Notes under the pieces: model-generated
Databases searched by the model: none
What the model was told of the DNA's origin: nothing
What the model saw: only the letters and a program-made list of their open reading frames with translations
Assembly: GCA_963677735.1 (NCBI GenBank)
Contig: OY782505.1
Span: 3,192,770-3,256,769, forward strand
Source of the DNA: Sphaerochaetaceae bacterium
GTDB lineage: Bacteria > Spirochaetota > Spirochaetia > Sphaerochaetales > Sphaerochaetaceae
DNA length: 64,000 nucleotides
Reading direction: 5' to 3'
Part shown: positions 22,190-45,456 of the stretch, piece by piece
Layout: each line of letters opens with the position of its first letter
Position numbering within the stretch: the stretch's first letter is position 1
Program-made: the position numbers and the translations under genes

Positions 22190-22217
22190 TTTATTTATCC
22201 CATTAATTTAATAGTGT

Positions 22218-22236
22218 TTAGACGTCCAACGTCTAA
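22218..22236. promoter_or_regulatory. Candidate GntR operator
   Basis: 8-3-8 perfect inverted repeat TTAGACGT-cca-ACGTCTAA, 29 nt upstream of the GntR start codon. Confidence 0.45.
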
Positions 22237-26882: not shown

Positions 26883-26973
26883 ATTTTATTTACAAGCTTG
26901 CAAAATTTCCTACTTAGATTGAAATCTAAATGGTATAAGGGAAACTATAAATAAAAATTTCTAGGAGTGTTTT

Positions 26974-27987: not shown

Positions 27988-27993
27988 GTAATT

Positions 27994-29541: not shown

Positions 29542-30598
29542 AATAATTTTAGATACTTTAAAAAAATTATCTAATCCTATTATTGCTATTATTATATCTC
29601 TTATACTGGGTGTATTTTTAATAATTCCTACAGGAGAGAGTCCTCTAGAAGTTTATAAAATGTTGCTTATAGGATCTCTTGGAAGTACAACAAGTCTTTT
29701 TGGTACTTTTGCAGCTGCAACACCTTTATTGTTTACAGGACTTGCTGCGGCTATGTCCTTTAGGGCAGGTGTGTTTAATATAGGGTTAGAAGGACAATTG
29801 TATATGGGTGCAATGGCATCTGCCTTGTGTGGTATCTATTTTAATTTTTTACCATCCTTTCTTCTGGTCCCTCTATGTTTAATTGCAGCTTTAATTGCTG
29901 GGGCTATTTGGGGTTATATTCCAGCGATTTTAAATGTCAAATTAGATGTAAATATATTTCTAAACTGTATTATGATGAATTCAATCGCACAGTTATTTTG
30001 TAATTATTTATCAGCTTACCCTTTTAAGGGGGAACTTCCTATTTCTGCTACATATAAAGTTAGTGAGAATGCTTTTTTGCCTAAATTAGCAGGAAATATG
30101 AATGACTTGAACTTTGGTTTTATTATAGCAATAATATTGGCCTTTATAATTTATGTAGTTCTCTTTAAAACCCGATTTGGTTATGAGAGTAGGGCTGCTG
30201 GAATTAATAGAATCTTTTCAAGATATATAGGTGTTAATGCAGCTAGAAAAACAATAATTATAGTAATGATTAGTGGGGCCATAGCAGGTCTTGCAGGTGC
30301 TGAAAGGATTCTTGGTGTTAATCATCGATATATTGCAGATTTTTCAAATGGTGTGGGATATACAGGTATCGCAGTATCTTTACTTGCTATGCACAATCCA
30401 ATTGGTTGCATAATCACTTCAATCTTTTTTGGTGCATTAGAAAATGGTGCAATTCAAATGGAAGTAATGACAAATATATCACGTGATTTAGTTTCCTCGA
30501 TTGAAGCTATAATGATTATTTTCATGGCGGGAGCTTATAGTTTTCCAAGATTGAAGAAATTTTTGAACAATAGAAAGAAGGAGAGTATAAATGCTTGA
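29534..30598 (+). CDS. ABC transporter permease (BPD_transp_2 type)
   Basis: ATG 29534 (MNKIILDT...) follows a GAGG RBS and overlaps the ATPase stop. Multi-TM, with RFGYESRAAGIN typical of the CUT2/BMP-system permease. Confidence 0.85.
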   Translation: MNKIILDTLKKLSNPIIAIIISLILGVFLIIPTGESPLEVYKMLLIGSLGSTTSLFGTFAAATPLLFTGLAAAMSFRAGVFNIGLEGQLYMGAMASALCGIYFNFLPSFLLVPLCLIAALIAGAIWGYIPAILNVKLDVNIFLNCIMMNSIAQLFCNYLSAYPFKGELPISATYKVSENAFLPKLAGNMNDLNFGFIIAIILAFIIYVVLFKTRFGYESRAAGINRIFSRYIGVNAARKTIIIVMISGAIAGLAGAERILGVNHRYIADFSNGVGYTGIAVSLLAMHNPIGCIITSIFFGALENGAIQMEVMTNISRDLVSSIEAIMIIFMAGAYSFPRLKKFLNNRKKESINA

Positions 30599-31493
30599 TA
30601 GCTTGACTATAATTATTGAAGTTACAATAAGGGCTTTTCCTGCAATCTTGATGGGTGGGCTTGCTGGATTAATTACTCAAAGAATTAAGGTTGGAAACCT
30701 TGGACTTGAAGGTTTTATGTTGATAGGTGCATTTGTATCAGTGCTAGGTAGTTATTATTCTGGATCTTGTTGGTTTGGTATATTTCTAGCGTGTTTAGTT
30801 AATTCTCTTTTATGTGTTTTCTTTATATTTTTCAATCAAGAATTTAAAGCTGATAATGTTGTTATGTCTGTAGCAATTAATATGTTTGCCTTAGGGATTA
30901 CTAAATATTTGTTATCCGTCTTATTTGGGGTTAAAGGGGCTTTTTCTTCTCCTAAAATTATTGGTGTTCCAAAAATAAATCTACCATTTTTAGAAGATAT
31001 TCCTATACTAGCTGCTTTTGCACATCAGTCAGTTTTAGTTTATATTTCTCTACTTTCTTTAGTTTTTATTCAGTTGTTATTATTTAAAACTAGTTTAGGA
31101 TTGAGAATTCGAGCCACAGGACCAAATGAAATGGCTGTAATAACAGCTGGAGTTAGTACTCAAAAAGTTAAAATTATTACCTATATAATAAGCGGGATAT
31201 TGTGTGGTTTAGCCGGAGCTTATTTATCTCTAGGTCAACTTACAATGTTTACCGATAACATGACAAATGGTAGAGGTTTTATTTCTATGGCAGCAGCGAA
31301 CTTTGGTTTTGGTTTGCCTATGGGAACATTTTATGGAGCTCTGTTATTTGGATTTGCTGACGGAATTACAATGAGAGCTCAATTACAAGGATTTCCTCCT
31401 CAGTTGGTTTCTATAATCCCATATTTGATTACTATATTGACTCTCTGTGGAATTGGAGCCTATAGAAAATATCATTTGAAGGATATAGAATAA
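30591..31493 (+). CDS. ABC transporter permease (BPD_transp_2 type)
   Basis: Overlaps the upstream permease by 8 nt. LGLRIRATGPNEMA motif. Confidence 0.85.
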   Translation: MLDSLTIIIEVTIRAFPAILMGGLAGLITQRIKVGNLGLEGFMLIGAFVSVLGSYYSGSCWFGIFLACLVNSLLCVFFIFFNQEFKADNVVMSVAINMFALGITKYLLSVLFGVKGAFSSPKIIGVPKINLPFLEDIPILAAFAHQSVLVYISLLSLVFIQLLLFKTSLGLRIRATGPNEMAVITAGVSTQKVKIITYIISGILCGLAGAYLSLGQLTMFTDNMTNGRGFISMAAANFGFGLPMGTFYGALLFGFADGITMRAQLQGFPPQLVSIIPYLITILTLCGIGAYRKYHLKDIE

Positions 31494-31495
31494 TT

Positions 31496-33070
31496 ATGAA
31501 TATAAAGAAACAAAATATATTGTTAATCACAACTGATCAACAAAGATATGATACGATTGCTGATAAAAATCATAGTTTTATTCAAACTCCAAATTTAGAT
31601 AAGTTGATTGATGATGGAAAGTTATTTAATAATTGCTATTGTGCAATTCCAGCTTGTATTCCTTCAAGACATAGTATCTTAACAGGGCAATACAGTGCTG
31701 TACATAATATGGATCACAATTATTTCAATAATGAAGAATTTGTACCATTTGGTGTTCCATCCTTCCCTGAATTTTTATCTCAAGCGGGGTATGATACCCA
31801 AGGGATTGGGAAAATGCATTTTGTTCCAACTCGAAAATCTAATGGTTTTAATCATTTAAAATTGATGGAAGAAATACCGGATTACATTGAAGATGATGAA
31901 TATACTATGCATCTAAAAGATCAAGGGTATGGAAGATTTCAATCTGTACATGGGGTTAGACATCATTTATATATGCAACCGCAACAATCAATGCTACCTG
32001 AAAGCCTTCATGGTTCAGCTTGGGTAACTGATCAAACAATTGATGCAATGGATAGATTAGATGGCTCTAGACCTTTTATGTATTGGACTTCTTTTATATC
32101 TCCGCATCCACCCTTTGATGTGCCATCTAAATGGGCTCATATGTATGATGATATTCAATTGCCTGAATTAATTGAATCTAAAACACCTATTTCAAGTATC
32201 GCTATCGAAAATAGTAAAATTGGGGAGTATTCTAATAAGCAAAGGCAAGATAGAAGTAGAAGACTTTATTATTGCTCTATTTCGTATGTAGATTATCAAA
32301 TTGGAAGAATCCTTGATAAATTAAAACAAAGTGGAATTTATGATGATACTCTAATTGTTTTTACTTCTGATCATGGGGAGATGTTAGGTGATTGTGGAAC
32401 CTTTCAAAAATTTTTACCATACGATTTTTCATCTAAAGTACCTCTAATAGTAAAACCTCCAAAAGGTAGAACCTTGACGGTAAAAAGTGATGAAATAATA
32501 AATCATATTGATTTATTTCCTACCTTTATGGATATTGCAAATATCAATAATCCATTATTTGATGATTTGCCTGGGGAAAGTCTCTTCAAAAGAAATAGAG
32601 AAATTGAGAGAACTTATACCTTTGTTGAATATCATAGGGATAATAAAAGGTGGATATCTTTGGTTTCAAATACTTATAAATATAATTATTATTATGGTGG
32701 AGGAAAAGAAGAATTATTTGATTTAAAAAATGATCCTTTTGAAACTGTTAATTTATTACAAAAATCAAATATTAGTTCAAGTATATTAGAAATTCAAAAA
32801 ATATATAGAAAAGAGTTAATAAAAAAAGAAAAACAATATGGTCCAATAGGCTATGTTGTAAATAATGATTTTATAGTTTTAGATAGCTATCAACCTAATG
32901 GTTTTGTAGAAAGAAATTTTCCTAAGTTCCCAACTCATTTAAAAGAAGAAGCGAAAAAAAATATGATAAGTTTGGAAGAAGAAATACAACTTGCTGTTAA
33001 AAATGAACCATTAATGGAAGATTTTAAAATAGAAAAATTGAATATAGTTAGAAAAGTATATACTGAGTAA
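31496..33070 (+). CDS. Cys-type sulfatase, no signal peptide (predicted cytoplasmic)
   Basis: Starts 3 nt after the permease stop. N-terminus NILLITTDQQR. Formylglycine signature C-x-P-x-R in PACIPSRHSILTGQ. FTSDHGEMLGD metal-site block. Confidence 0.85.
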   Translation: MNIKKQNILLITTDQQRYDTIADKNHSFIQTPNLDKLIDDGKLFNNCYCAIPACIPSRHSILTGQYSAVHNMDHNYFNNEEFVPFGVPSFPEFLSQAGYDTQGIGKMHFVPTRKSNGFNHLKLMEEIPDYIEDDEYTMHLKDQGYGRFQSVHGVRHHLYMQPQQSMLPESLHGSAWVTDQTIDAMDRLDGSRPFMYWTSFISPHPPFDVPSKWAHMYDDIQLPELIESKTPISSIAIENSKIGEYSNKQRQDRSRRLYYCSISYVDYQIGRILDKLKQSGIYDDTLIVFTSDHGEMLGDCGTFQKFLPYDFSSKVPLIVKPPKGRTLTVKSDEIINHIDLFPTFMDIANINNPLFDDLPGESLFKRNREIERTYTFVEYHRDNKRWISLVSNTYKYNYYYGGGKEELFDLKNDPFETVNLLQKSNISSSILEIQKIYRKELIKKEKQYGPIGYVVNNDFIVLDSYQPNGFVERNFPKFPTHLKEEAKKNMISLEEEIQLAVKNEPLMEDFKIEKLNIVRKVYTE

Positions 33071-33118: not shown

Positions 33119-33153
33119 TGAGAGTGTTAATATTTTTTATATCAACACTCTCA
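33119..33153. terminator. Hairpin between the convergent sulfatase and LacI genes
   Basis: TGAGAGTGTT-15 nt-AACACTCTCA, a 10-bp perfect stem with AT-rich flanks. Confidence 0.5.
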
Positions 33154-33216: not shown

Positions 33217-34281
33217 TTAATTGTTTAAACTTTCTAGATCAGGGACATTGTTTTTAAGGTAGAGTGAAGGTAATATGTTATATCTTTCCTTCACTTCCTT
33301 TTTCATAATAAAATGTTCAAAAACAACTGATATTATTTTATAACCATGAATTTCAGGTTTTTGACTAATTATTGCATTAAAATAACCTTTATGCATGGCT
33401 TCTAATGATATTGAAAAAATATCACTTCCAACAAGTATAATATCTCTATCTTTTATAGAAGCTCCAATATAATTATATACTCCCGCAGTTGTTCTAGCAT
33501 TATTTGAATAGATCCCTTTAATATCATCAAAAGTTGTAAGTAAATCTTTTATAGTTCCATAAAGTTTCTCAGGATATTTAATTGACTCATATATTTCTAT
33601 AACCTGTAATTTAGGATTTGTAATAGACATTTGTGAAAAGAATCCGTTAACAATTTGGCTATGGTTAAATGAGTCTCTCCTAGTTCCCATTAAAATAACT
33701 CTACCACTTTCTTTAATCATACTACCAAGATATTCTGCAGCAAGGCGTCCAATTGTATTAGGATCTGTCATTACAATACTTTTTCTTTCACTAGATGGGG
33801 CATCAGATTCTAGGAGAAAAATTTCAATACCTTGTTCATGAAATCTATCAAGAATATCCAAGAATTTAGTCTCATCCCATATATTTGTAATAAGGCCTTT
33901 TATATTAATAGAGTGGTCATTTAGAATTTCTTCCATTTTAAATTTTTGGTCTTCTATTGAACCATTATATGTATATTCAATTATAGAAAGATTTGCTAAA
34001 GATAATTCATTAGTTCTTTTTCTAATTCCTTTCCATAAAAATTGGTAGTAGTATTTATCTGTATTAACCGGCTCAGGTAGAAGAACAGCAATATTACAAT
34101 TACATTCATTATTAATTTTCTTTTTATTCATGTAATTCATAGATTCAGCAATTTTAATTATTTGAGCTTTTTTATTTTCTCCAACACCTTTTTTATTGTT
34201 TATTGCTTTGTAGACTGTTCCTACAGAGACTTTTGCAACATTTGCAATTTCTTGTAGCGTGACTTTTTCATTGTCCTGCAT
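33217..34281 (-). CDS. LacI family transcriptional regulator
   Basis: N-terminal HTH VTLQEIANVAKVSVGTVYKAINNKKGV, plus a periplasmic-binding-protein-like effector domain. Confidence 0.85.
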   Translation of the reverse strand: MQDNEKVTLQEIANVAKVSVGTVYKAINNKKGVGENKKAQIIKIAESMNYMNKKKINNECNCNIAVLLPEPVNTDKYYYQFLWKGIRKRTNELSLANLSIIEYTYNGSIEDQKFKMEEILNDHSINIKGLITNIWDETKFLDILDRFHEQGIEIFLLESDAPSSERKSIVMTDPNTIGRLAAEYLGSMIKESGRVILMGTRRDSFNHSQIVNGFFSQMSITNPKLQVIEIYESIKYPEKLYGTIKDLLTTFDDIKGIYSNNARTTAGVYNYIGASIKDRDIILVGSDIFSISLEAMHKGYFNAIISQKPEIHGYKIISVVFEHFIMKKEVKERYNILPSLYLKNNVPDLESLNN

Positions 34282-34294
34282 TTTTTTCTCACCC

Positions 34295-34326
34295 TTTGTT
34301 AGTATATAAAATTTGTTAGTATATAA
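34295..34326. repeat. Tandem direct repeat, 2 x TTTGTTAGTATATAA with 17-bp period
   Basis: Identical copies at 34295-34309 and 34312-34326, 14 nt upstream of the LacI start. Confidence 0.6.
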
Positions 34327-34374
34327 GTATTATTACATAGGAATAACGAAAAAACAAGAAAAAAAGAAAAAAAT

Positions 34375-34434
34375 TAAGAAATTTTTCTTATTTTTCCTAC
34401 AAAATTAACAAAAAAATTGAAAAATTTTTCTTGA
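34375..34434. promoter_or_regulatory. Two related A/T palindromes in the tct promoter region (candidate operators)
   Basis: TAAGAAATTTTTCTTA (34375-34390, 7/8 arms). TTGAAAAATTTTTCTTGA with a perfect core GAAAAATTTTTC (34419-34430) overlaps a TTGACT -35-like hexamer. Confidence 0.35.
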
Positions 34435-34487
34435 CTTACCAATATTCGTCGGTTACTCTGTTACAGATTTAAAAAAAGGAACGAATA

Positions 34488-34934
34488 ATGGAAAAAAAGA
34501 AAAAAATTCTCGATAAAGAATTTATCGTAGGTGCGTTAGCAATCGCCTTTAGTTTGGGGTTTGTATTACTTGATAAAAAAAGTCTTGGACTTTATCCAAT
34601 AACAGTCTTCTCCCTTTTTACTGTTTTAGGATTGATTAGCATTTTAACAAGTTTAAAACGTCAAGAATCCAATGCAATTGCAAAAACTAATTTGAAAGAA
34701 ATAATTTTATTATTATTACTATTCATTAATCCCTTAGTAGCTAAGACAATCGGTTTTTATATTTCTGGTTTTGTAGAAATTTTTTTAATTTCAGTATTAA
34801 TTCTTCCAGAAAAAAATAAGAAATCGATATTTAAAGCAGCAGTATTCTGTTTAATTGCTGTAGTAATTGCTTATTTAATTTTCACAGTTTCTTTACGTAT
34901 AAGGTGTCCAAAAGGTATTTTTAACCTATTTTAA
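34488..34934 (+). CDS. tctB: Tripartite tricarboxylate transporter TctB-like small membrane protein
   Basis: 148 aa, 4 TMs, immediately upstream of tctC/tctA. Assigned by position and topology. Confidence 0.65.
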   Translation: MEKKKKILDKEFIVGALAIAFSLGFVLLDKKSLGLYPITVFSLFTVLGLISILTSLKRQESNAIAKTNLKEIILLLLLFINPLVAKTIGFYISGFVEIFLISVLILPEKNKKSIFKAAVFCLIAVVIAYLIFTVSLRIRCPKGIFNLF

Positions 34935-34959
34935 ATAATTTTCTAAAAGGAGTTTTTTT

Positions 34960-35919
34960 ATGAAAAAAATCTTATTAACCGTATCTGTTGCAATATTAGC
35001 AACAGCGTCAATTTTTGCATCAGGTCAAACAGAAGAAGAAAGTGCTACAGCTTTTCCAAGCAAAGAAATATCTTGTATTGTAATTGCAAAAGCAGGTGGT
35101 GGTACAGATACCATGGCAAGAGCTAACACTGTTCCTCTTGAAGAAACTTTAGGTAAACCTATTGTTGTACTTAATAATGGTACTGCTGGCGGTATGATTG
35201 CAATGGATGATATTAGTAAATCAGATGCTGATGGCTATACTATTGGAGTTTTCTCAAATACAGATGCACCAAACTTTGTTTATAGTGATACAGATCCTGG
35301 ATTCACTTTAGATGATTTCACATACATTGCAGGTCTTAACCAATCTGGAGATTTACTTGTATTGAAAAAAGATTCTCAATTTTCAAGTACAGATGAGTTT
35401 ATTGCTTATGCAAAAGCTAATCCTGGAAAACTAACTGTTGGGCTTCCTTCTCCAATTCAAGAAATGTCATTAAGCATGGTAGAAACTGGAATGGATATTG
35501 ATGTTACTTCTGTAGTTTATAGTGGTGGAAATAAAGTTTTTGCTGATCTAATTGGTGGTCATGTTGAAGCTGGTATTTTAGGAACAAAATTTGTTTCTCA
35601 ATTAAAAGAACAAGATATGAAAATTCTAGGTCTTCTTTTAAACGAAAGACTATCTTCAATTCCTGAAGTTCCTACCTTATTAGAACAAGGTTATCCTGCA
35701 AACAATCCTGTAAAAAGAATGCTAGTTGGACCTAAAGGTATGCCAGCTGAAATTGTTGCTAAATATGTTGCAGCATTAGAAGAAGGTTTTGCTGAAGGTG
35801 GAAAAATTGCAGAAAATATTATTAAAATTGGTGAAGTTCCAATGTTAGTAACCGGTGATGAGCTTGCAGCTTTCCTAGAAGAAGATTTTGCAATGCGTAA
35901 AGAATTTTTAAGTAAATAA
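34960..35919 (+). CDS. tctC: Tripartite tricarboxylate transporter substrate-binding protein (TctC/Bug family)
   Basis: Signal peptide, then FPSKEISCIVIAKAGGGTDTMAR and VVYSGGNKVFADLIGGHVEAG, typical Bug-family blocks. Confidence 0.85.
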   Translation: MKKILLTVSVAILATASIFASGQTEEESATAFPSKEISCIVIAKAGGGTDTMARANTVPLEETLGKPIVVLNNGTAGGMIAMDDISKSDADGYTIGVFSNTDAPNFVYSDTDPGFTLDDFTYIAGLNQSGDLLVLKKDSQFSSTDEFIAYAKANPGKLTVGLPSPIQEMSLSMVETGMDIDVTSVVYSGGNKVFADLIGGHVEAGILGTKFVSQLKEQDMKILGLLLNERLSSIPEVPTLLEQGYPANNPVKRMLVGPKGMPAEIVAKYVAALEEGFAEGGKIAENIIKIGEVPMLVTGDELAAFLEEDFAMRKEFLSK

Positions 35920-35940
35920 TTATTAGTTTAGGAGTGAATT

Positions 35941-37476
35941 GTGGAACTTTTTTCCGTCGTATTTAGTAACATTTTTTCCATAGATGTTCTTCTTATTTGT
36001 TTTATTGGAACTTTAGCTGGTATCGTATTAGGTGCGATACCAGGTATGAATGGTGGGATTGGGATAGCTGTAATGCTTCCTTTTACCTATTCAATGCAAC
36101 CTGCTCAAAGTTTATTGTTCTTAGGTGGTATGTATCTAGGATCTTCCTATGGTGGATCTATCTCAGGTATACTTATTAACTGCCCAGGAACAGCTGAGTC
36201 AGCCTGTACCACTTTTGAAGGGTACCAAATGACAAAAAGAGGCGAAGGAAAACATGCTTTATATTATTCAATATTCTCAAGTGGATTTGGTAGTATTGTA
36301 GGACTAATATGTCTTCTACTTTTTGCTCCTGTACTTGCTAAAGTTTCTGTAAAATTTGGCCCAGCTGAAATGATGCTTTTAGCTATCTGTGGACTAACTA
36401 TTGTAGGAAGTCTAACAGGTAAGAATGTGATAAATGGACTTATTGCAGCATTATTTGGATTATTTTTAGGAATGATTGGTGTTGAAGAAGCCACTGGTGC
36501 CATGAGATTTACTCTAGGATTGAGAACACTTAGAGGTGGAATAAATTTAATTCCTGCTGTAATTGGTTTGTTTGCTATTACAGAAATGGTAAAACAAGGA
36601 ATGGGTTTATTTAATACAGAAGAAGTTACAGAGATGAAATTAATTCCTGTTAAAGTCTCTAAAATTTTAAAAAACATTAAATCTAAATATTTAGGTATTT
36701 TAATCCGCTCATCCTTAGTTGGAACATTGATTGGTGTTCTTCCTGGAACAGGTGCTGCTATTGCTTCATTTATTGCTTATGGTGATGCAAAAAGTAGTGA
36801 TAAGGAGGGTACATTCGGAAAAGGTAATGCTGCCGGTATTATTGCACCTGAGAGTGCAAATAATGCAGCTGTTGGTGGTTCTCTTGTCCCAATGTTGTCC
36901 CTAGGTATTCCAGGATCTGCTACTTCAGCAATCATGTTTGGAGCCTTGACTATTCAAGGTATGGTTCCCGGTCAAAGCCTTTTCACTGAACATGCTGGTA
37001 CAGTTTATACGTTCTTAATTGGTATGTTTGTTGTTGCAATATTTATGGTTTTAATTGGAGTTTTTGGAATTCCAATGTTCTCAAAAATTGTAAAAATAAA
37101 AATGAAATTCATTATACCTGTAGTAATCCTTTTTTCACTCATTGGTGCTTATAGTGTTAACAATTCTATGGGAGATGTAACAATTGCTATAGTCCTAGGC
37201 CTTATTGGGGTTCTTTTTGCAAAAGTAGAAATTCCAAATACCCCTATAGTATTAGGTTTAATTTTAGGACAAATCGTTGAAAATAACCTTGTTAGAACAA
37301 TGACAATAGTTAATGCAGAATCAATCAATATTTTCAGTTATATATTTACTAGACCAATTTGTTGGGTAATTGTTTTTGTTACCGCATATCTAATCATTTC
37401 TAATATTAGGGTAATTAAGAAAAGTAAATTAATAAAAGAAGAATCAAATATTGAAATGGATTTAAATGAAGAATAA
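35941..37476 (+). CDS. tctA: Tripartite tricarboxylate transporter permease TctA
   Basis: GTG start after AGGAGTG. 511 aa, multi-TM. TctA blocks GAIPGMNGG and GVLPGTGAAIASFIAYG. Confidence 0.9.
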   Translation: MELFSVVFSNIFSIDVLLICFIGTLAGIVLGAIPGMNGGIGIAVMLPFTYSMQPAQSLLFLGGMYLGSSYGGSISGILINCPGTAESACTTFEGYQMTKRGEGKHALYYSIFSSGFGSIVGLICLLLFAPVLAKVSVKFGPAEMMLLAICGLTIVGSLTGKNVINGLIAALFGLFLGMIGVEEATGAMRFTLGLRTLRGGINLIPAVIGLFAITEMVKQGMGLFNTEEVTEMKLIPVKVSKILKNIKSKYLGILIRSSLVGTLIGVLPGTGAAIASFIAYGDAKSSDKEGTFGKGNAAGIIAPESANNAAVGGSLVPMLSLGIPGSATSAIMFGALTIQGMVPGQSLFTEHAGTVYTFLIGMFVVAIFMVLIGVFGIPMFSKIVKIKMKFIIPVVILFSLIGAYSVNNSMGDVTIAIVLGLIGVLFAKVEIPNTPIVLGLILGQIVENNLVRTMTIVNAESINIFSYIFTRPICWVIVFVTAYLIISNIRVIKKSKLIKEESNIEMDLNEE

Positions 37477-37486
37477 GGATTTAGAA

Positions 37487-38956
37487 ATGTCAAAAAAGAA
37501 TATTGTATATATTTTATCTGATCAGCATAACTCAGCAATAATGGCAAATGCTGGAGATGAATATATAAGGACTCCTAATATTGATAGTATCTTTGAAAAA
37601 GGTACTTCTCTTGAAAATTGTTATTGTGCCTCTCCTTTATGTGTACCAAGCAGATCCGCAATTCTAAGTGGATTACTTCCCACTTCAACTGGTGTTTATA
37701 ATAATATGCAGAGTCTATCGACTTGTAAGGCTACTTTTGTAAACTCATTAACCGTTGGAGGTTATGAAACTGTATTAAGTGGTAGAATGCACTTCGTTGG
37801 TTGGGATCAACGTCATGGTTTTGAAAAACGTTTTGTAGGTGATATTACACCATGCTTCGTTGGAGCCGATAACGAGAGAGAAATCTATGGTGACTTTATG
37901 AGAAGTTCTGGTCAAAATAGAATATCAATTGAGAAATCAGGAGCAGGACATTCTGCAGTTTTAGATTTTGATAGGGATGTTGTAGATAGTGCTTGTAACT
38001 ATTTAAAAGAAAGAACAGATGAACGACCTTTGTTTATGACAGTTGGTTTTTATGGACCACATTGTCCTTATGTAGCACCAAAAGAACTTTTTGATTACTA
38101 TTATGAAAAATTACCTGAAATACCATTTTTTGATTTAGAAGAGAAAGCTAAAATGCATCCAGCCATTCAAAAGTGGTATGAAAATAGAAATCTTGAAGAA
38201 ATAACACCTGAAGATGTTAGACGTATTAGAGCAGCTTATTATTCTCTTGTTGAAATGCTAGATGGATACGTTGGCGAGATATTAAAAACTGTTGAAGATA
38301 CAATTGGTCTAAAAGATACAATTATCATTTATGGTTCAGATCATGGTGATAATATTGGAGAGCATGGTTTATTCTGGAAAACTAACTTCTATGAAGGTGC
38401 TTCAAAAGTACCTATGGTATTTTTAAATGAAGAACTTTTTGAGGCTGGAAAAAGTATCAAAGCAAATACATCCTTATTAGATGTTGCTCCAACAATCATA
38501 GACTTAGCTATGACTCCTCAATTGCCAAAATATGATGGTATTAGTTTAACTAAATATCTTCAAGGCAATGAAGTTTTAGATGAAGAGAGACCAATTATTT
38601 CTATTTGTAGCGATATTAAAGGCGATATGCCAAGCGCTATGTTACGAAAAGGCAAATTCAAACTTATTGCTCACGCTGGGTATGAAGATTTTCAATTATT
38701 TGATTTAGAAAAAGATCCAAATGAACAAATCGACTTAGGCTGTAATGATGAGTATAAAGATATTATAAAAAAATTAAGCGAAGAACTATTTTCTTTTTGG
38801 GATTCTAAAGAAGCTGAAAAACAATTAGCAGATAGCAAAATCCATTTTCAATTGATGAAAGATTGGTTCAATATTACAAAACCAGAAATAATTGAAGAAT
38901 GGAGAGGTGATTCATCAAGAAATTATCTTTGTAATTTTCAAGATACTAATAAATAA
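37487..38956 (+). CDS. Cys-type sulfatase (choline-sulfatase-like), no signal peptide
   Basis: I chose ATG 37487 (MSKKNIVYILSDQHN) with an AAGGA RBS; the ORF track opens at 37466. C-x-P-x-R signature in SPLCVPSRSAILSG. YGSDHGDNIGEHG block. Confidence 0.85.
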   Translation: MSKKNIVYILSDQHNSAIMANAGDEYIRTPNIDSIFEKGTSLENCYCASPLCVPSRSAILSGLLPTSTGVYNNMQSLSTCKATFVNSLTVGGYETVLSGRMHFVGWDQRHGFEKRFVGDITPCFVGADNEREIYGDFMRSSGQNRISIEKSGAGHSAVLDFDRDVVDSACNYLKERTDERPLFMTVGFYGPHCPYVAPKELFDYYYEKLPEIPFFDLEEKAKMHPAIQKWYENRNLEEITPEDVRRIRAAYYSLVEMLDGYVGEILKTVEDTIGLKDTIIIYGSDHGDNIGEHGLFWKTNFYEGASKVPMVFLNEELFEAGKSIKANTSLLDVAPTIIDLAMTPQLPKYDGISLTKYLQGNEVLDEERPIISICSDIKGDMPSAMLRKGKFKLIAHAGYEDFQLFDLEKDPNEQIDLGCNDEYKDIIKKLSEELFSFWDSKEAEKQLADSKIHFQLMKDWFNITKPEIIEEWRGDSSRNYLCNFQDTNK

Positions 38957-38971
38957 TAATAGGAAGAGATT

Positions 38972-39973
38972 ATGAGAATACAATATAAAGACTTAGAAGC
39001 AGAGTTCAAAAGAGTTTTGTTAACTAGAGGTTTAAATGAAAAAAATGCAGCAGCTACTGCAACAGTTTTTGCAAAAAATAGCCTAGATGGTGTTTACTCT
39101 CACGGTGTTAATAGATTTGCAAGAGTTATTTCATATTTAGATCATGGAACAATTGAAGCAGATAATGTGGCTACTATGGAAAATTCTTTCATGGGATTTG
39201 AAAGATGGAATGGTCATAGAGGGCTTGGTCCTTTAAATGCTAATTTAGCAATGGATAGAGCTTGTGAACTTGCAAAACAATATGGTATTGGTATTGTTGC
39301 TTTAGGTAATAATAACCACTGGATGCGTGGAGGCTCATATGGCTGGCAAGCTGCTGATAATGGTTGTATAGGTATTTGTTGGTCAAACACACAACCTAAT
39401 ATGCCTGCATGGGGTGGCTTAGATAAAAAAATTGGTAACAATCCTTTTATTATGGCTGTTCCTAGACAAAATGGTGCTCATCTTGTTGTTGACTGTGCAG
39501 TATCTCAATTTTCTTATGGAAAAATAGAAGAGTTCAAAATGAAAGGTTTACAACTTCCTGTTCCTGGTGGATATGATAGTGAAGGTAATTTAACAACTGA
39601 TCCAGGTGAAATTGAAAAAAGCTGGAGAGTATTGCCAATGGGCTATTGGAAAGGTAGTGGTATTTCAATTGCTTTAGATGCGATTGCTACTGTACTTACT
39701 AATGCTAATTCTGTTCAAGAAATTGGAACATTCGGTGATGAAGTTGGTTTAACTCAAATCATGATTGCTATCGATCCTTCAAAAATGAATACACCTGAAT
39801 TAACTGATGAAATTGTATCTAAAATTGTTGAAGATATTCAAAGTTCTCAACCAATTAAGGAAGGTGGAAAAGTCTTTTATCCAGGCGAAATTGAATTAAA
39901 TACAAGACAAGATAATATCGAAAATGGGATTCCTGTTTTAGATGAAGTTTGGAATAAAATAAAAAGCTTATAA
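38972..39973 (+). CDS. dlgD: Ldh_2 family dehydrogenase, 2,3-diketo-L-gulonate reductase (YiaK/DlgD)-like
   Basis: Long collinear similarity to E. coli YiaK as I recall it: GVYSHGVNRF, NHWMRGGSYGWQAA, GICW, LPMGYWKGSG, and the end WNKIKSL versus WAKIQAL. Confidence 0.8.
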   Translation: MRIQYKDLEAEFKRVLLTRGLNEKNAAATATVFAKNSLDGVYSHGVNRFARVISYLDHGTIEADNVATMENSFMGFERWNGHRGLGPLNANLAMDRACELAKQYGIGIVALGNNNHWMRGGSYGWQAADNGCIGICWSNTQPNMPAWGGLDKKIGNNPFIMAVPRQNGAHLVVDCAVSQFSYGKIEEFKMKGLQLPVPGGYDSEGNLTTDPGEIEKSWRVLPMGYWKGSGISIALDAIATVLTNANSVQEIGTFGDEVGLTQIMIAIDPSKMNTPELTDEIVSKIVEDIQSSQPIKEGGKVFYPGEIELNTRQDNIENGIPVLDEVWNKIKSL

Positions 39974-39985
39974 AAAGGAAAATTC

Positions 39986-41002
39986 ATGAAATCAATTTGT
40001 ATAAAAAAACCAGGTGAAATATTTGAGATTGAGGTAGATACACCTCAAGCTCAACCATCAAAAGCTTTGATTAAAGTTCACGCAGCAGGTATCTGTGGAA
40101 GTGATTTAGGAGCTTTTAAAGGTACAAACAATCTTGTATCTTACCCTAGGATTATAGGGCATGAAATAGCAGGTGAAATTGTTGCTATTGATAGTGATAA
40201 TAAAAAAAATCTCAAAGTGGGGGATCGCGTAGTAGTAGATCCATACCTATACTGTGGTAACTGTTATCCTTGTTCTATAAAAAGAACTAATTGTTGTGAA
40301 GATCTAAAAGTTATTGGTGTTCATGTCGATGGTGGGATGGGGGAATATTACTTGCATCCAGATTCAATGTTGACTAAAATACCTGAAAATTTAAGTTATG
40401 AAGATGCAGTAGTATCAGAACCTTTAACAATTTCACTTCATGGTTTACATAGAGCACAATTAACAAAGGGTGAATATATTGTAATTTCTGGAGCTGGCCC
40501 AATAGGTATACTTGCAGCAATTGTTGCAAAACATTATGGTGCTGTTCCAATTGTTGTTGATATTGTTCAAGAAAGACTAGATATGGTTAAGGATATGGGT
40601 ATTGAATATACCATTAATAGTATGAAAGAAAACCCAGTAGAAAAGGTTAAAGAATACTGTAATGGACAATTAGCACAAGTATTGATGGAAGCATCAGGCT
40701 CTAATATTGCAATCAAAAATAGCTTTGATCTTGTATGTAATGCTGGAAGAGTTGTTTTAACAGGTTGGCCAAAAAATGAAACATCTATTCAAACTGGTAT
40801 TTTTACAAAAAAAGAATTAGATATTAGAGGATCAAGAACTAGTGCTGGAGAATTTGAAGAAGCTTTAGATTTAATTAACGAAGGAATTATTCCACTTGAT
40901 AAGATCATTACTAAAGTTATTTCATTAGATCAAGCTGCTGATACTGTTAGAGATATCGATAAAAATCCTGGAGATTACTTAAAAGTAATTGTAAAACTAT
41001 AA
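39986..41002 (+). CDS. Zinc-binding medium-chain alcohol/polyol dehydrogenase
   Basis: GHEIAGEIV catalytic Zn site. Structural Zn Cys cluster CGNCYPCSIKRTNCC. Rossmann ISGAGPIGIL. Confidence 0.85.
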   Translation: MKSICIKKPGEIFEIEVDTPQAQPSKALIKVHAAGICGSDLGAFKGTNNLVSYPRIIGHEIAGEIVAIDSDNKKNLKVGDRVVVDPYLYCGNCYPCSIKRTNCCEDLKVIGVHVDGGMGEYYLHPDSMLTKIPENLSYEDAVVSEPLTISLHGLHRAQLTKGEYIVISGAGPIGILAAIVAKHYGAVPIVVDIVQERLDMVKDMGIEYTINSMKENPVEKVKEYCNGQLAQVLMEASGSNIAIKNSFDLVCNAGRVVLTGWPKNETSIQTGIFTKKELDIRGSRTSAGEFEEALDLINEGIIPLDKIITKVISLDQAADTVRDIDKNPGDYLKVIVKL

Positions 41003-41102: not shown

Positions 41103-41141
41103 TATGTATAACTGATTTTCAATTCAAATCAGTTATACATA
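41103..41141. repeat. Perfect 16-bp inverted repeat
   Basis: TATGTATAACTGATTT-tcaattc-AAATCAGTTATACATA, 100 nt downstream of the ADH stop. No U-tract follows it. Confidence 0.6.
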
Positions 41142-41208
41142 TGACCTATAGATTTTATATATTAAAATTCATAATTCCCTAATAATACTAATTATTAAAC
41201 TTTATATA

Positions 41209-41237
41209 ATCCTAAATCAAATTAGGATATTTTTTTT
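41209..41237 (+). terminator. Rho-independent terminator for the tct-sulfatase-dlgD-adh operon
   Basis: ATCCTAA-atcaaa-TTAGGAT followed by ATTTTTTTT. Confidence 0.55.
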
Positions 41238-41380
41238 ATTTGCTTAAGATAATTATATATATAGTTGATCTAAATTTTTCTTATAATTTTATTACCAAAT
41301 AAAATTTATATTTTCTTTATTCAATGTTAATGTGTTCTAATTAAGTTCTTAATTTTATTGATTTTTATAATACTTATAGA

Positions 41381-41502: not shown

Positions 41503-41775
41503 TTAACAGCAAGAAGATGCTTCTTCATCTAGAATAGCTAATTCTCCATCTTCTACTGCAATTGTTACAGTTTCAGCTCTTTGTTTAACATCATCTTCCA
41601 TTAATACGGAAATACCATTGATTGAAGTTGCATTACTTCCATCTTCTAATTTTGCCAAGTTAAAAACAAGAGAAGTTCCACAACATGATTGTTGTACCTT
41701 AGCTTTTAGGCAGTTACAATTATTTGATGTGAATAATTCTTGAAGCATTGTTTTTGCATCGTTTGTAATTTTCAT
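41503..41775 (-). CDS. Small Cys-rich protein with vicinal cysteines and C-terminal CC (HesB-like / CC-Se motif family-like)
   Basis: 90 aa, 59 nt downstream of arsA on the same strand. Cysteines at NCNC, SCCG and the terminal SSCC. The layout is reminiscent of HesB/IscA-like single-domain proteins. Confidence 0.55.
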   Translation of the reverse strand: MKITNDAKTMLQELFTSNNCNCLKAKVQQSCCGTSLVFNLAKLEDGSNATSINGISVLMEDDVKQRAETVTIAVEDGELAILDEEASSCC

Positions 41776-41834
41776 TTTTATTACCTCTGATAAATATTTT
41801 AATTTTTAATTTTAACGTTTTAATTCGTTTTTTT

Positions 41835-43580
41835 TTAAGCTAATAAAGTTTTAAGATTCTCGCCTTTGATTTCTTCGGCTTGCCAAGCAATTACAGCAAA
41901 GTTTCCTTTAGCATGATCATCAACTTTATTTATCCATTCAATTTCATTGCTAGCTTTTGCTGATAGCATCGAATTGGTTGTTTTTGTTTGATATAGGGAA
42001 GAGTTGATAATCCACCATTTATTATTAATTTTAGCACGTTTTAAATCTGTTTCTAATCTTTTAGCTTCGTAAACAGGTGTAGCTTCAGGTAGAGTTACAA
42101 TTATTACTTCGGTTTCATCTGAATTATGAAGTCTTGGTAATAACTTTTTAGCAGATTCAGGAATATCGCCTTTAGAACGTTCAATTTCTTGATTATAGCT
42201 TTGTGTTGATTCTAAAAGTAACAATGTATGTCCTGTAGGAGCTGTATCTATTACAACAACTTCATTTTCTGCCTTTGCTACAATTTCAGCAAATGCTCTA
42301 AAGACTGCAATCTCTTGAGTACAAGGTGATCTTAAATCTTCTTCAATATAAGCTACATCTTCAGCAGACATAGTTTTTCTAGCATTAGATAAAACTTCTT
42401 CTTGATATTTTTTTAATTCTGCACCCTCATCAATATGACTCATTGTAATCCCATCGCTTTCAGAAATAACATATTTTAGATGAGCTGCTGGATCAGTTGT
42501 TGTAAGATGAACCTTTTTGCCTTTTTGAGCTAGACCTAAAGCAATAGCTGCTGCAATAGTTGTTTTTCCAACACCACCTTTACCCATGGTAAAAATAACT
42601 TTTTTGTTACTATTTGAGAGATCTTCAATAATATCTTTAAGATTAGGAATTTTTTTTGCATTTATAATTTGATCTTTTTGTATTAAGTTATCTCTGGTTA
42701 AAAGTGATCTAACATTCTCAATTCCTGTAACATTGTATCCTCTTAGAGGAACCATATATGTAACAATTGATTTTAGTTTTTCTGGCATAGCAGAAAGGGC
42801 TAATTGCTGTTTCTCATATAACCTTTGTGAAATTTCATCATCATGAGATGTCATAATACCATTTATTATAAGCAGCTGATTATTAACACCAATTTCAGAG
42901 AGTTCAATTGAAGCTCTTTCAGCTTCAACTAATGGTGCTGTTTCAGCACGTGCGACAAGCACAAGAGTAGTTAGTTTCTTATCAGACAAAGTATCTACAG
43001 CTTTTTTGTAAACTTCTTTCTTACCTTCAAGCCCAGATAGCTGTCCTAAACAAGAGGCTCCGTGAGTGCTCTCACTTATAAAATTGTCCCAAGCTGAGGG
43101 TAGTTGTAACATTCTAAGAGTATGTCCTGTTGGGGCAGTATCAAAGATGATGTTATCATATTTACTTTGAATATCTTCGTCAGTAATGAATTTAGAAAAC
43201 TCATTAAAAGCGGCTATTTCTACAGTACATGAACCTGAAAGCTGTTCTTCCATATTATTAAGTACAGAATCTGGAAGTTTACCCTTATATGGAGCAATTA
43301 CAGACTCTTTATATTCTTCAGCTGCTTTAACTGGATCTAAATTTGCAACAACAAGGTTTTCAACTTCTTTAATTGAAACGCCTTTGTTATTTAGTTCCGT
43401 ATTAAAAACATCTTGTAAATTAGATGCTGGATCAGTACTAATTAAAAGTACTTTCTTTCCATTATCAGCTAGATTAACTGCTGTAGCACAAGCTGTTGAA
43501 GTTTTTCCAACACCGCCTTTGCCTGTATAAAACATATATTTAGTTAAATTAATCTCTTGTGGATCAAAGTTTTGTATCAT
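41835..43580 (-). CDS. arsA: Arsenite-stimulated ATPase ArsA
   Basis: Two homologous halves, each with a P-loop (GKGGVGKTS, GKGGVGKTT) and the DTAPTGHTL signature. Cys residues sit in SGSCTVEIAAF, GASCLGQ and RSPCTQEIAVF, at the metalloid-site positions. Confidence 0.95.
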   Translation of the reverse strand: MIQNFDPQEINLTKYMFYTGKGGVGKTSTACATAVNLADNGKKVLLISTDPASNLQDVFNTELNNKGVSIKEVENLVVANLDPVKAAEEYKESVIAPYKGKLPDSVLNNMEEQLSGSCTVEIAAFNEFSKFITDEDIQSKYDNIIFDTAPTGHTLRMLQLPSAWDNFISESTHGASCLGQLSGLEGKKEVYKKAVDTLSDKKLTTLVLVARAETAPLVEAERASIELSEIGVNNQLLIINGIMTSHDDEISQRLYEKQQLALSAMPEKLKSIVTYMVPLRGYNVTGIENVRSLLTRDNLIQKDQIINAKKIPNLKDIIEDLSNSNKKVIFTMGKGGVGKTTIAAAIALGLAQKGKKVHLTTTDPAAHLKYVISESDGITMSHIDEGAELKKYQEEVLSNARKTMSAEDVAYIEEDLRSPCTQEIAVFRAFAEIVAKAENEVVVIDTAPTGHTLLLLESTQSYNQEIERSKGDIPESAKKLLPRLHNSDETEVIIVTLPEATPVYEAKRLETDLKRAKINNKWWIINSSLYQTKTTNSMLSAKASNEIEWINKVDDHAKGNFAVIAWQAEEIKGENLKTLLA

Positions 43581-43614
43581 TATTATCTCTCTTTGAAAAT
43601 TTTTTTTTTAGTCT

Positions 43615-43956
43615 TTATTTATTACTATCAATTTCTTCATCAATAAAATTAACAGGTAATTCTAGTAAATTTGCAAGTTCTTCATTAGTAGGGTATCTGC
43701 CGGTGATTAGAACTTCTTCATCTACTAAAGTGAAGGGCAAATTATCTACGCCATTATCATTTATCATTTTATTTACTGTTTTATTAGTCATAAACTTCAT
43801 TGGAGAAGAAGTTAAATTATATCGATTAACTTCTATCCCTTTTTTCTTTAAAGCATTGACTACAGTAGATATTCTAAGTAGCTCAGAATCAACACCAACA
43901 CCACACAGTCCTGTTGGGCAACACATAGCCGGTTCATATATAGTTATCTTTTTCAT
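43615..43956 (-). CDS. arsD: Arsenic metallochaperone/repressor ArsD
   Basis: N-terminus MKKITIYEPAMCCPTGLCG (the Cys12-Cys13-Cys18 motif). Confidence 0.9.
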   Translation of the reverse strand: MKKITIYEPAMCCPTGLCGVGVDSELLRISTVVNALKKKGIEVNRYNLTSSPMKFMTNKTVNKMINDNGVDNLPFTLVDEEVLITGRYPTNEELANLLELPVNFIDEEIDSNK

Positions 43957-43979
43957 ATAAAGTTGTACTCCTGTTCTTA

Positions 43980-45050
43980 TTATGATTTTAAAGTTTCATT
44001 TGATGGTTCTAAAAACCAATGTTTAGTATTATTTGCAATTTTAACGAGGGTTAGCATAACTGGAACTTCAACAAGTACTCCAACTATTGTAGCTAATGCA
44101 ACTGGAGAAGTTGTACCAAATAATGCGATTGCAACAGCAACTGATAATTCGAAGAAGTTGGAAGCACCAATCATACCCGCTGGAGCTGCAACATTATGTT
44201 CTAGCTTCAATACTCTTGCAGCAAAATATGCAATAAAGAATATTAAAAAGGTTTGAATTGTTAGTGGAATTGCAATTAATAATATGTGTAATGGGTTTTC
44301 TAAAATTACATCACCTTGGAAAGAAAATATAATGATTAGAGTTAATAGCAAACCAACTATAGTAATGTTGTTAAATTTGGGAATAAATGTTTCATTAAAA
44401 TATTTTTCACCTCGATTTTTTACAATTGAGATTCTAGTTAATACGCCAGCAACAAGAGGAATTACTACAAATAATACAACTGATAAGATAAGTGTATCCC
44501 ATGGCACTTGAACACCACTAACACCTAATAAGAAGGCAACAATTGGAGTAAATGCAACTAGAATAATTAAATCGTTTGTTGCAACTTGAACAACGGTATA
44601 TGCTGGGTTACCTTTTGTTAAATGACTCCATACAAATACCATAGCGGTACATGGTGCAGCTCCTAGAAGAACAGCTCCTGCTAAATAATCTTTTGCGAGA
44701 TCTGCTGGAATAATTGCTTTAAATACTACGAAAAAGAAGAAGGATGCAATAAAGTACATTGTAAAAGGTTTAATTAGCCAGTTTACTACCCAAGTTAAAT
44801 ATAATCCTTTTGGGTTCTTTCCAACGTTTTTAACACTTTGGAAATCTACTTTCATCATCATTGGATAAATCATAATCCAAATAAGAATTGCAATAGGGAT
44901 TGATACATTTGCATACTCAAATTTGCCTAAAAATTCTGGGATAGCAGGTGTAAATTTACCAATTAAAATTCCAACTACCATACATAGTGCTACCCATAAT
45001 GTTAGATACTTTTCAAAAAAACCTATATCTGCTGACTTTTTGTTGCTCAT
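43980..45050 (-). CDS. acr3: ACR3 family arsenite efflux permease
   Basis: 356 aa, 10 TMs. Conserved LGAAPCTAMV motif. N-terminus FFEKYLTLWVALCM. Confidence 0.9.
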   Translation of the reverse strand: MSNKKSADIGFFEKYLTLWVALCMVVGILIGKFTPAIPEFLGKFEYANVSIPIAILIWIMIYPMMMKVDFQSVKNVGKNPKGLYLTWVVNWLIKPFTMYFIASFFFFVVFKAIIPADLAKDYLAGAVLLGAAPCTAMVFVWSHLTKGNPAYTVVQVATNDLIILVAFTPIVAFLLGVSGVQVPWDTLILSVVLFVVIPLVAGVLTRISIVKNRGEKYFNETFIPKFNNITIVGLLLTLIIIFSFQGDVILENPLHILLIAIPLTIQTFLIFFIAYFAARVLKLEHNVAAPAGMIGASNFFELSVAVAIALFGTTSPVALATIVGVLVEVPVMLTLVKIANNTKHWFLEPSNETLKS

Positions 45051-45117
45051 ATTAAATTACTCCTTAATTAGCTTTTAGTTTCTATTTTTATTTATATTTT
45101 AATTTTTTAGTTATTTA

Positions 45118-45456
45118 TTAAATTAAACAGTTGCATAAATTTTCAGATTTACACTTTTCCATTCTTTTATTATCTTCTTTAAATGTTGATAAATCTTTTA
45201 ATTTCTCTTCAAGATATAACCAAAGTTGTTGATTTTGTTGTATAAATTCATTATTGATTTTGTAATATGACCATTGAGCTCTTTTGTAACTTTCTAAGAT
45301 TCCACTACCTTTTAGAGCAGATAGGTGACGTGATATATTCGATTGTTTTAAACCTAAACAATTTTCAAGTTCACATACGCACATATCATTCTCTAATAGA
45401 ATAGATAAAATACGAAGTCTACTTTCTTCTGCTAAAGCTTTAAATATTTCTACCAT
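45118..45456 (-). CDS. arsR: ArsR family metalloregulator
   Basis: ESRLRILSILLENDMCVCELENCLGLKQSNISRHLSALK, with the CVC metalloid site in the HTH. Confidence 0.9.
   Translation of the reverse strand: MVEIFKALAEESRLRILSILLENDMCVCELENCLGLKQSNISRHLSALKGSGILESYKRAQWSYYKINNEFIQQNQQLWLYLEEKLKDLSTFKEDNKRMEKCKSENLCNCLI

Follow-up and report, generated by a model that had tools for sequence, protein, structure and literature searches.

Gene Organization of the Locus

The genome stretch analyzed here, 64,000 nucleotides of a Sphaerochaetaceae bacterium (GenBank assembly GCA_963677735.1, contig OY782505.1, positions 3,192,770 to 3,256,769; in the following referred to as the window, about 30% G+C), harbors a compact set of seven genes combining a transporter for organic anions with a sulfatase and two dehydrogenases. 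A gene for a LacI-family regulator is followed on the opposite strand by genes encoding the three subunits of a tripartite tricarboxylate transporter (TTT), the sulfatase, a dehydrogenase of the Ldh_2 family belonging to the DlgD/YiaK type, and a medium-chain zinc-dependent alcohol dehydrogenase (Zn-ADH) (Table 1). All seven genes are found at the coordinates given by the initial annotation, as established by listing of open reading frames (ORFs) and by Pfam assignments, and the TTT complement is complete, with TctA, TctB and the secreted TctC encoded together.

From tctB to the Zn-ADH gene, the intergenic gaps amount to 25, 21, 10, 15, and 12 nt, the third value referring to the sulfatase ATG at 37487. 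This start is preceded by an AGGA 7 nt upstream and agrees with the N-termini of homologous proteins, while the longest possible sulfatase ORF, beginning at 37466, overlaps tctA by 11 nt. The previously proposed single unit of closely packed, co-oriented genes diverging from the LacI gene is thus borne out by the ORF spacing. A terminator scan of the window gave no strong terminator within the operon, and the genes from tctB to the Zn-ADH gene are probably co-transcribed, as deduced from their arrangement. Between the LacI gene and tctB, 206 nt are left for the regulatory region.

Table 1. Genes and sequence elements of the TTT–sulfatase locus and of the operon preceding it (positions refer to the window).
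Feature	Position	Strand	Basis and remarks
LacI-family regulator	33217-34281	−	Pfam LacI (PF00356) and Peripla_BP_4 (PF13407)
TctB, small TTT membrane subunit	34488-34934	+	Pfam PF07331; synteny conserved
TctC, secreted substrate-binding protein	34960-35919	+	Pfam PF03401; N-terminal signal peptide
TctA, large TTT membrane subunit	35941-37476	+	Pfam PF01970, 450 bits
Sulfatase	37466-38956 (longest ORF); probable start 37487	+	Pfam Sulfatase (PF00884, E = 3.8e-37) and SGSH_C
Ldh_2 protein, DlgD/YiaK type	38972-39973	+	Pfam Ldh_2; NCBIfam PRK13260
Zn-ADH, RspB/PRK10083 type, medium-chain	39986-41002	+	Pfam ADH_N and ADH_zinc_N
Operator candidate AAGAAA-TT-TTTCTT	34376-34389	no strand	degenerate window form of the family palindrome
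Second, half-conserved operator-like element ATTGAAAAATTTTTCTTGAC	34416-34435	no strand	overlaps the −35-like hexamers TTGAAA / TTGACT
Promoter-like match	34417-34446		promoter scan
Hairpin, 15-bp stem	33119-33153	no strand	terminator scan; separates the 3' ends of the sulfatase-1 operon (+) and the LacI gene (−)
Non-coding stretch 3' of the operon	41103-41240	+	long hairpin at 41103-41141; low-GC stem followed by T8 at about 41212-41240
Neighboring sulfatase-1 operon	26178-33070	+	Crp/Fnr-like regulator, Bmp/PnrA-type binding protein, CUT2-type ATP-binding cassette (ABC) transporter (ATPase and two permeases), leaderless sulfatase-1

Conservation of the Transporter–Sulfatase Core

Searching with a family profile yielded 31 loci in species-representative genomes and 43 in metagenomes, to which direct look-ups added loci with Pfam-labeled neighbors (individual loci are designated by L and a number), and all loci were compared with the window proteins by tblastn. 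In the 44 loci classified as close (sulfatase at least 56% identical), which belong to Spirochaetota and Bacillota, tctA is located immediately upstream of the sulfatase gene without exception, an arrangement far beyond chance. TctC, TctB, and an orthologue of the divergent LacI are likewise present in the close loci wherever the contig reaches far enough, with TctC orthologues in cassette loci sharing 49-63% identity. The cassette is carried by many members of the Sphaerochaetaceae and Spirochaetales as well as by Enterocloster citroniae DSM 19261, E. aldenensis, Lachnospiraceae, Bariatricus, and Oscillospiraceae, many of the carriers being gut or rumen organisms, including Hadza and rumen spirochaete genomes. 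More distant relatives of the sulfatase (about 50% identity) were encountered in two alphaproteobacteria, one from a soda lake and one marine, as well as in a Planctomycetota genome. Most loci whose sulfatase is 45-55% identical retain TctC and TctA side by side, but their regulators and downstream genes differ.

The dehydrogenase genes show another distribution. Of the 44 close loci, 17 have a DlgD gene adjacent to the sulfatase gene and 13 an adjacent Zn-ADH gene, nearly all of them spirochaetal, and both genes are absent from the cassette versions of Enterocloster, Lachnospiraceae, and Oscillospiraceae. Hence, of the co-occurrence of TctC, sulfatase, and Ldh_2 protein that had been suggested as a check on the locus, the transporter–sulfatase link holds in all close loci (by TctA), whereas DlgD is accessory. 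The conserved core consists of LacI, tctBCA, and the sulfatase gene, while DlgD and Zn-ADH are lineage-specific accessories. Bare cassettes were found in Enterocloster and several Clostridia, among them loci L035/L036, L038, and L032; by the look of their sequences, the ORFs on the 3' side of these cassettes resemble unrelated housekeeping genes. Most of the small ORF clusters proved to be antisense artefacts.

Variants of the cassette in which the transporter has been exchanged are also encountered. In L065, a LacI gene and genes for a sulfatase (55% identical), a DlgD (54%), and a Zn-ADH (56%) are found together, with an ABC importer in place of the TTT; the binding protein of this importer resembles NMT1 and, distantly, SsuA. 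The three enzymes thus stay together despite the transporter swap, which argues for one pathway. Directly 5' of the 55%-identical sulfatase gene in L021, a tripartite ATP-independent periplasmic (TRAP) system is encoded, with subunits 35% identical to YiaN and 29% identical to YiaO. In L037 and L045, a DUF386 gene of the YhcH/YjgK/YiaL family is inserted between the sulfatase gene and DlgD.

Further combinations were noticed among the less similar loci. At positions 9071-18590 of L040, a 52%-identical sulfatase and TctBCA under a GntR/UTRA regulator precede genes for a Zn-ADH, a split transketolase, and a protein resembling 3-hydroxyacid dehydrogenase, a downstream chemistry unlike that of the window. 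L041 (10001-20240) combines a 54%-identical sulfatase and TctBCA with a σ54/PrpR_N-type activator, beside a 2-hydroxycarboxylate transporter (2HCT), and a citrate-lyase gene set (acyl carrier protein, HpcH_HpaI, CitF, and citrate lyase ligase) is found nearby. This proximity may be a coincidence or may reflect a pathway for a sulfated hydroxy-tricarboxylate.

Sequence Features of the Sulfatase

The sulfatase has the domain (alkaline-phosphatase fold) and the C/S-x-P-x-R motif of the S1 family, its formylglycine motif being of the Cys type (C59-V-P-S-R63). Its best match in the PDB is the choline-O-sulfatase of Sinorhizobium meliloti (6FNY, E = 7e-67; 35% identity to BetC), and a weaker match to PehA reaches 150 bits. 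Against the choline sulfatase model TIGR03417, it scores 318.6 bits at a cutoff of 433.45, and it stays under every NCBIfam equivalog cutoff. More than 2,500 database homologues are found at E ≤ 1e-30, several of which have been named "choline-sulfatase" by JGI.

In an alignment of 120 database homologues and BetC, Cys, Pro, and Arg of the motif are kept in 119 of the 120 homologues, the remaining sequence being gapped at those columns, and residues D19, Q20, C59, R63, N80, H109, H199, D292, H293, and K305 do not vary among the homologues. The corresponding BetC set (D14, Q15, N75, K102, H104, H201, D296, H297, and K309) is invariant as well with the exception of K102, the LysA position, where the clade bears an invariant arginine (R107), a conservative swap. 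With the catalytic D19/Q20 at the N-terminus, no space is left for a signal peptide, in line with the enzyme having been described as leaderless; it is predicted to be cytoplasmic, and its catalytic residues are intact.

The determinants of choline specificity, on the other hand, are replaced. In BetC, choline is bound by the hairpin GW-X13-WYHN including Trp129 and His145 (PMC9063841), and Glu386 recognizes the quaternary ammonium group, its replacement by Leu lowering the efficiency on choline-O-sulfate about 1000-fold (PMC5870055). Both the GW-X13-WYHN clamp and Glu386 are missing in all 120 members: W129 is replaced by G, A, V, or R, W142 by S, T, or A, W143 by S, P, or D, Y144 by G, N, D, or F, and H145 by Q or P, while Glu386 is substituted by I, V, or L in 116 of the 120. 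Newly invariant in the family are D383, K385, D387, and R107 as well as the motifs S-G-A-G-x-S and D-[IV]-K-G-D-x-P-S, the Ile/Val of the latter occupying the Glu386 position. The earlier description as choline-sulfatase-like consequently stands for the nearest homology but not for the function. As judged from the alignment, the sulfatase is a member of a distinct clade related to BetC with a rebuilt and more polar leaving-group pocket, and the label "choline-sulfatase" is by the same comparison a misnomer arising as an annotation artefact.

Genes for the anaerobic sulfatase-maturating enzyme (anSME) or its homologues are found near sulfatase homologues in seven loci (L023, L024, L030, L064, L075, L078, and L085). 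Among these, the anSME of L023 scores 396 bits against TIGR03942 (cutoff 349), and L064 belongs to the close cassette group.

Regulator and Proposed Operator

In 18 genome loci, and in additional loci from metagenomes, the corresponding position is taken by a LacI orthologue of 34-50% identity. In 16 of these 18 LacI-bearing genome loci, the LacI–tctB intergenic region contains the palindrome AGAGAAA-N2-4-TTTCTCT, which is essentially missing from the rest of the about 500 kb of flanking sequence and from loci without this LacI. The degenerate form present in the window occurs there once in 64 kb, with 0.05 occurrences expected by chance. Of the second, half-conserved element further downstream, the right half-site TTTTTCTTGA recurs in L008 and L009, and the −35-like hexamers that it overlaps probably belong to the tctB promoter. 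The promoter scan served only to note this overlap with the operator, as the σ70-like sites found in the window (78) are not above those of shuffled sequence (89.9 expected). Taken together, LacI, operator, tctBCA, and sulfatase gene make up one regulatory cassette that has moved between phyla, with repression and induction presumably exerted by LacI.

Transporter and Dehydrogenases

The closest relatives of TctC in the PDB are Bug/TctC proteins (E = 4e-28 or weaker). Binding proteins of both TTT and TRAP systems characteristically bind carboxylates.

The Ldh_2 protein had been regarded as a close homologue of YiaK/DlgD, the 2,3-diketo-L-gulonate reductase of E. coli, and this assignment is well supported: it scores 442 bits against the NCBIfam equivalog PRK13260 (3-dehydro-L-gulonate 2-dehydrogenase; cutoff 316) and shares 47% identity with E. 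coli YiaK in a full-length BLASTP alignment of 334 residues. Both invariant active-site histidines, His44 and His116, with the roles described for the family (PMC3527362), are kept, and the characterized members of the family all act on 2-oxo or 2-hydroxy acids (PMC3527362). The Zn-ADH gives the best PDB match with E. coli RspB (4ILK, 5e-61), and against its best equivalog, PRK10083, it scores 241 bits at a cutoff of 376. Of the partners of YiaK in the E. coli pathway (yiaL, lyxK, sgbH, sgbU, and sgbE), no homologue is encoded in the window; among the related loci, yiaL-like genes are restricted to L037 and L045.

Locus Boundaries and Neighboring Genes

On its left side, the cassette is likely delimited by the strong 15-bp hairpin between the sulfatase-1 operon and the converging LacI gene, acting as a bidirectional terminator. 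On the right, an inverted repeat at 41103-41141, GTATATAACTGATTT...AAATCAGTTATACAT, lies about 100 nt past the Zn-ADH stop codon without a T-run behind it and may represent an RNA-stabilizing hairpin or a protein-binding site. The stretch up to 41240 is the probable 3' end of the operon transcript; its elements are not among the sites given by the terminator scan. An Rfam scan of the window matched no RNA family and, therefore, gives no riboswitch. An arsenic-resistance operon on the minus strand (41503-45456; ArsR, ACR3-type SBF permease, ArsD, ArsA, and a 90-aa ORF without family match) is unrelated to the cassette and forms its right boundary.

Directly upstream of the cassette, a second transporter–sulfatase operon is located, which the initial annotation had missed (Table 1). 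Loci L043 and L044 were used for its comparison. The clostridium Maledivibacter halophilus shows the same order of Bmp-ABC and sulfatase genes and, after them, genes for two nucleoside phosphorylases and for cytidine deaminase. In E. aldenensis, a 48%-identical homologue of sulfatase-1 is joined to its own TctCBA, with a nucleoside hydrolase, RpiB, and a split transketolase encoded alongside. This gene content suggests that the Bmp-ABC–sulfatase operon serves a substrate of its own, a nucleoside or ribosyl compound bearing sulfate. The E. aldenensis arrangement also implies that the pairing of TTT and sulfatase is a wider theme which need not imply a carboxylate. Genes related to nucleosides flank the sulfatase island of the window at 17510-23896 and 57985-59757 (both on the minus strand), comprising a GntR/UTRA regulator with a PNP_UDP_1 phosphorylase and a sugar-type ABC transporter, a xanthine/uracil permease, and a 5'-nucleotidase.

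Pairs of TctA with sulfatases of other subfamilies, as well as multi-sulfatase islands with TTT genes, are present in the same genomes (L014 and L015 at about 650-3500, L021, L023, and L027). Going by these gene neighborhoods, the supply of cytoplasmic sulfatases by TTT systems seems to be widespread among these anaerobes.

Besides, the window encodes a 208-aa membrane protein matching the Pyr4-like transmembrane terpene cyclase family (2527-3153, plus strand; PF25129, E = 1.4e-27) followed by an Fe-S (Fer4) protein, a 333-aa protein with an ArsR-type helix-turn-helix solely at its C-terminus (8001-9002, plus strand), and two ORFs without Pfam match of 147 aa (24212-24655, plus strand) and 360 aa (62036-63118, minus strand). 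An RND/OEP efflux system is also encoded, consistent with a diderm host. The pyruvate kinase of the window clusters at 90% identity with proteins of the Sphaerochaetaceae, and window proteins are also found on a contig of assembly GCA_041595915.1.

Discussion

The most plausible reading of the locus, given with moderate confidence, is a catabolic cassette under LacI repression that is directed at a small sulfate ester, hydrophilic and anionic in nature. Among such esters, a sulfated keto- or hydroxy-aldonate type of sugar acid is the most likely substrate. A hydrophilic, carbohydrate-derived anion is favored because of the polar pocket of the sulfatase, the sugar-type regulator, the association with importers for organic anions (TTT, TRAP, and SsuA-like ABC), and the sugar-acid dehydrogenases. 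In the corresponding pathway, the secreted TctC would capture the sulfated compound, which would then be moved across the inner membrane by TctA and TctB, and the leaderless sulfatase, with Cys59 converted to formylglycine, would cleave the sulfate ester in the cytoplasm. In spirochaetes including the strain represented by the window, the freed hydroxy or keto acid might be converted by the YiaK-type 2-oxoacid dehydrogenase and the RspB-type Zn dehydrogenase to an intermediate of mainstream sugar-acid metabolism, where direction and order of the redox steps, like the nature of the substrate, are deduced from the enzyme families. LacI would bind the AT-rich palindrome overlapping the tctB promoter and presumably be released by the substrate or its desulfated product.

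Several observations weigh against this interpretation. DlgD and Zn-ADH, being missing from over half of the cassettes, are not obligatory, and lyxK, sgbH, sgbU, and sgbE, absent from the window, are represented in related loci by nothing beyond weak lyxK-like matches. The presence of a TTT does not prove a carboxylate substrate, since sulfatase-1-type enzymes also pair with TTT systems beside nucleoside-hydrolase and ribose genes. In the sulfatase itself, the LysA position is taken by R107, a residue not occurring there in BetC, and the 64-kb window encodes neither an anSME nor a formylglycine-generating enzyme (FGE). Moreover, the proposed operator, rich in AT and without the central CG usual for LacI-family operators, is atypical for proteins of this family. 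Of the originally proposed logic of importing and desulfating a sulfated sugar acid, the operon arrangement, the intact leaderless sulfatase, and the conserved transporter link have withstood scrutiny, while the dehydrogenases have dropped out of the core and a carboxylate on the substrate is plausible rather than certain.

More specifically, the cassette could tentatively represent the first pathway dedicated to a sulfated sugar acid in free form. Its substrate might be an aldonate or keto-aldonate sulfated at O-2, with L-ascorbate-2-sulfate, intact or ring-opened, as an example, or else a sulfated uronate derived from host or algal glycans. If the sulfate were placed on the alpha-hydroxyl of an aldonate, a keto-aldonate, or ascorbate-2-sulfate, desulfation would expose the very group on which Ldh_2/YiaK-type enzymes act, a speculative connection.

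Unlikely, though the most probable of the alternatives, is a sulfated neutral sugar, polyol, or glycoside without carboxylate, with DlgD and Zn-ADH acting at a later stage on an oxidized product or being peripheral. As TTT systems are paired with another sulfatase family beside nucleoside and ribose genes, the sulfate itself may be the anionic handle recognized by TctC. The E. aldenensis locus, where IU_nuc_hydro, RpiB, transketolase, and sugar-isomerase genes accompany the TTT and the different sulfatase, favors such a substrate, as do the further TctA–sulfatase pairs in L014, L015, L023, and L027 and the bare cassettes, which require no acid-specific enzymes. The SsuA/NMT1 family, to which the L065 importer is related, is associated with sulfo compounds, again in line with recognition of the sulfate. 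However, the commonest enzyme partner of the cassette is an Ldh_2 protein above the DlgD cutoff, from a family whose characterized members use 2-oxo or 2-hydroxy acids (PMC3527362), and the typical ligands of TTT and TRAP binding proteins likewise speak for a carboxylate.

The assumption of two independent modules that happen to be neighbors, the TTT–sulfatase part serving an unrelated ester and the DlgD/Zn-ADH pair an acid devoid of sulfate (2,3-diketo-L-gulonate or an L-aldonate, for instance), appears improbable. It would account for most clostridial cassettes being devoid of DlgD and Zn-ADH, for the position of DlgD upstream of LacI and outside the operon in L006, and for the second LacI-like gene between DlgD and sulfatase in L014-L016; no operator copy was found before these detached DlgD genes (L006, L014-L016). 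In the window, by contrast, the dehydrogenase genes follow the sulfatase gene at gaps of 12-15 nt without a terminator and no separate importer is present for the pair, and the adjacency recurs in at least three arrangements, including the one with a different transporter in L065.

Bile-acid and phenolic-acid sulfate conjugates bear both a carboxylate and a sulfate, and many cassette carriers originate from gut or rumen. Nevertheless, it is very improbable that the cassette serves such a sulfated hydrophobic conjugate of host or plant origin, as small polar residues (S/T, S, G, Q, N) and the charged D and K stand where BetC has its aromatic pocket, suiting a hydrophilic leaving group, and as the regulator is a sugar-type LacI, the enzyme partners are sugar-acid dehydrogenases, and relatives of about 50% identity reside in the soda-lake alphaproteobacterium, the marine one, and the Planctomycetota genome. 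Least probable of all is a choline-O-sulfate sulfatase, a sulfur-scavenging enzyme, or a non-sulfatase hydrolase of phosphonate or phosphate esters, for which the top NCBIfam and PDB matches to choline sulfatases, the JGI names, and the match to PehA might be quoted, since the score is below the TIGR03417 cutoff, clamp and Glu386 are lost throughout the family, bet genes are not found nearby, the repressor is of the LacI type and not a sulfur-starvation regulator, and the transporter type fits organic anions, choline sulfate being zwitterionic.

Among known systems, the proposed sugar-acid cassette resembles, in its layout, the annotated E. coli operon plaR/yiaK-yiaL-yiaMNO-lyxK-sgbHUE, in which YiaMNO imports 2,3-diketo-L-gulonate. 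In both, a repressor gene diverges from genes for a YiaK-type dehydrogenase and for a secondary importer that takes up an organic anion with the aid of a binding protein, and the neighboring DUF386 and DlgD genes in L037 and L045 mirror the yiaK-yiaL pair (DUF386 protein 33% identical to YiaL). Unlike the E. coli operon, the cassette employs a TTT instead of a TRAP system, a LacI-family repressor, and a sulfatase placed between transporter and dehydrogenase, while kinase, decarboxylase, and epimerases are missing from the window and a Zn-ADH is found instead. With BetC of S. meliloti (SulfAtlas S1_12; 6FNY, 6G5Z, 7PTH), the window sulfatase shares the nature of a cytoplasmic Cys-type formylglycine sulfatase and the catalytic residues except LysA, and a role similar to that of BetC, acting on a small imported sulfate ester, is proposed. 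However, its partners are TTT, LacI, and sugar-acid enzymes, with no genes for betaine synthesis.

The Pseudomonas ats locus encodes the sulfate-ester ABC importer AtsRBC and sulfatases for scavenging sulfur from aromatic and alkyl esters under sulfate-starvation control. There, too, a dedicated binding-protein-dependent importer feeds a cytoplasmic desulfating enzyme, and the binding protein of L065 is distantly SsuA-like, whereas the cassette is equipped with a sugar-type repressor, carbon-catabolic partners, and normally a TTT. The combination of importer and cytoplasmic sulfatase is, hence, already known as a kind from BetC and ats. The sulfatases of polysaccharide-utilization loci in Bacteroidota, in turn, are secreted, matured by anSME, and desulfate glycans in the periplasm before import. 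Solved examples of these enzymes are among the structural matches. They share with the window enzyme the S1 family and the need for anaerobic maturation of the active site, but differ in that here, in spirochaetes and Firmicutes, the ester is proposed to enter the cytoplasm intact and to lose its sulfate there.

In line with the earlier statement that a characterized pathway combining TTT, sulfatase, and DlgD was not known, a literature search, in which most subscription-journal papers were not covered, found no functional description and no published account of the TTT/LacI/sulfatase cassette, its operator, the extensions by DlgD, ADH, and YiaL, or the non-choline clade. Substrates have been assigned to a minority of sulfatase subfamilies, and ligands to very few TTT systems outside the Proteobacteria. 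Here, one sulfatase clade is tied to a transporter, to a repressor with a recognizable operator, and to two sugar-acid dehydrogenases, and the cassette is present in the cultured gut species Enterocloster citroniae DSM 19261 and E. aldenensis. If the interpretation as a sulfated-sugar-acid pathway is true, the neighboring Bmp-ABC–sulfatase operon would handle sulfated nucleosides likewise, a widespread annotation would be corrected, and a cytoplasmic route for sulfated small molecules would exist in anaerobes of gut, rumen, and sediment. Spirochaetes and Firmicutes would then feed cytoplasmic sulfatases via TTT, TRAP, and SsuA-like ABC importers, the opposite of the periplasmic desulfation practiced by Bacteroidota.

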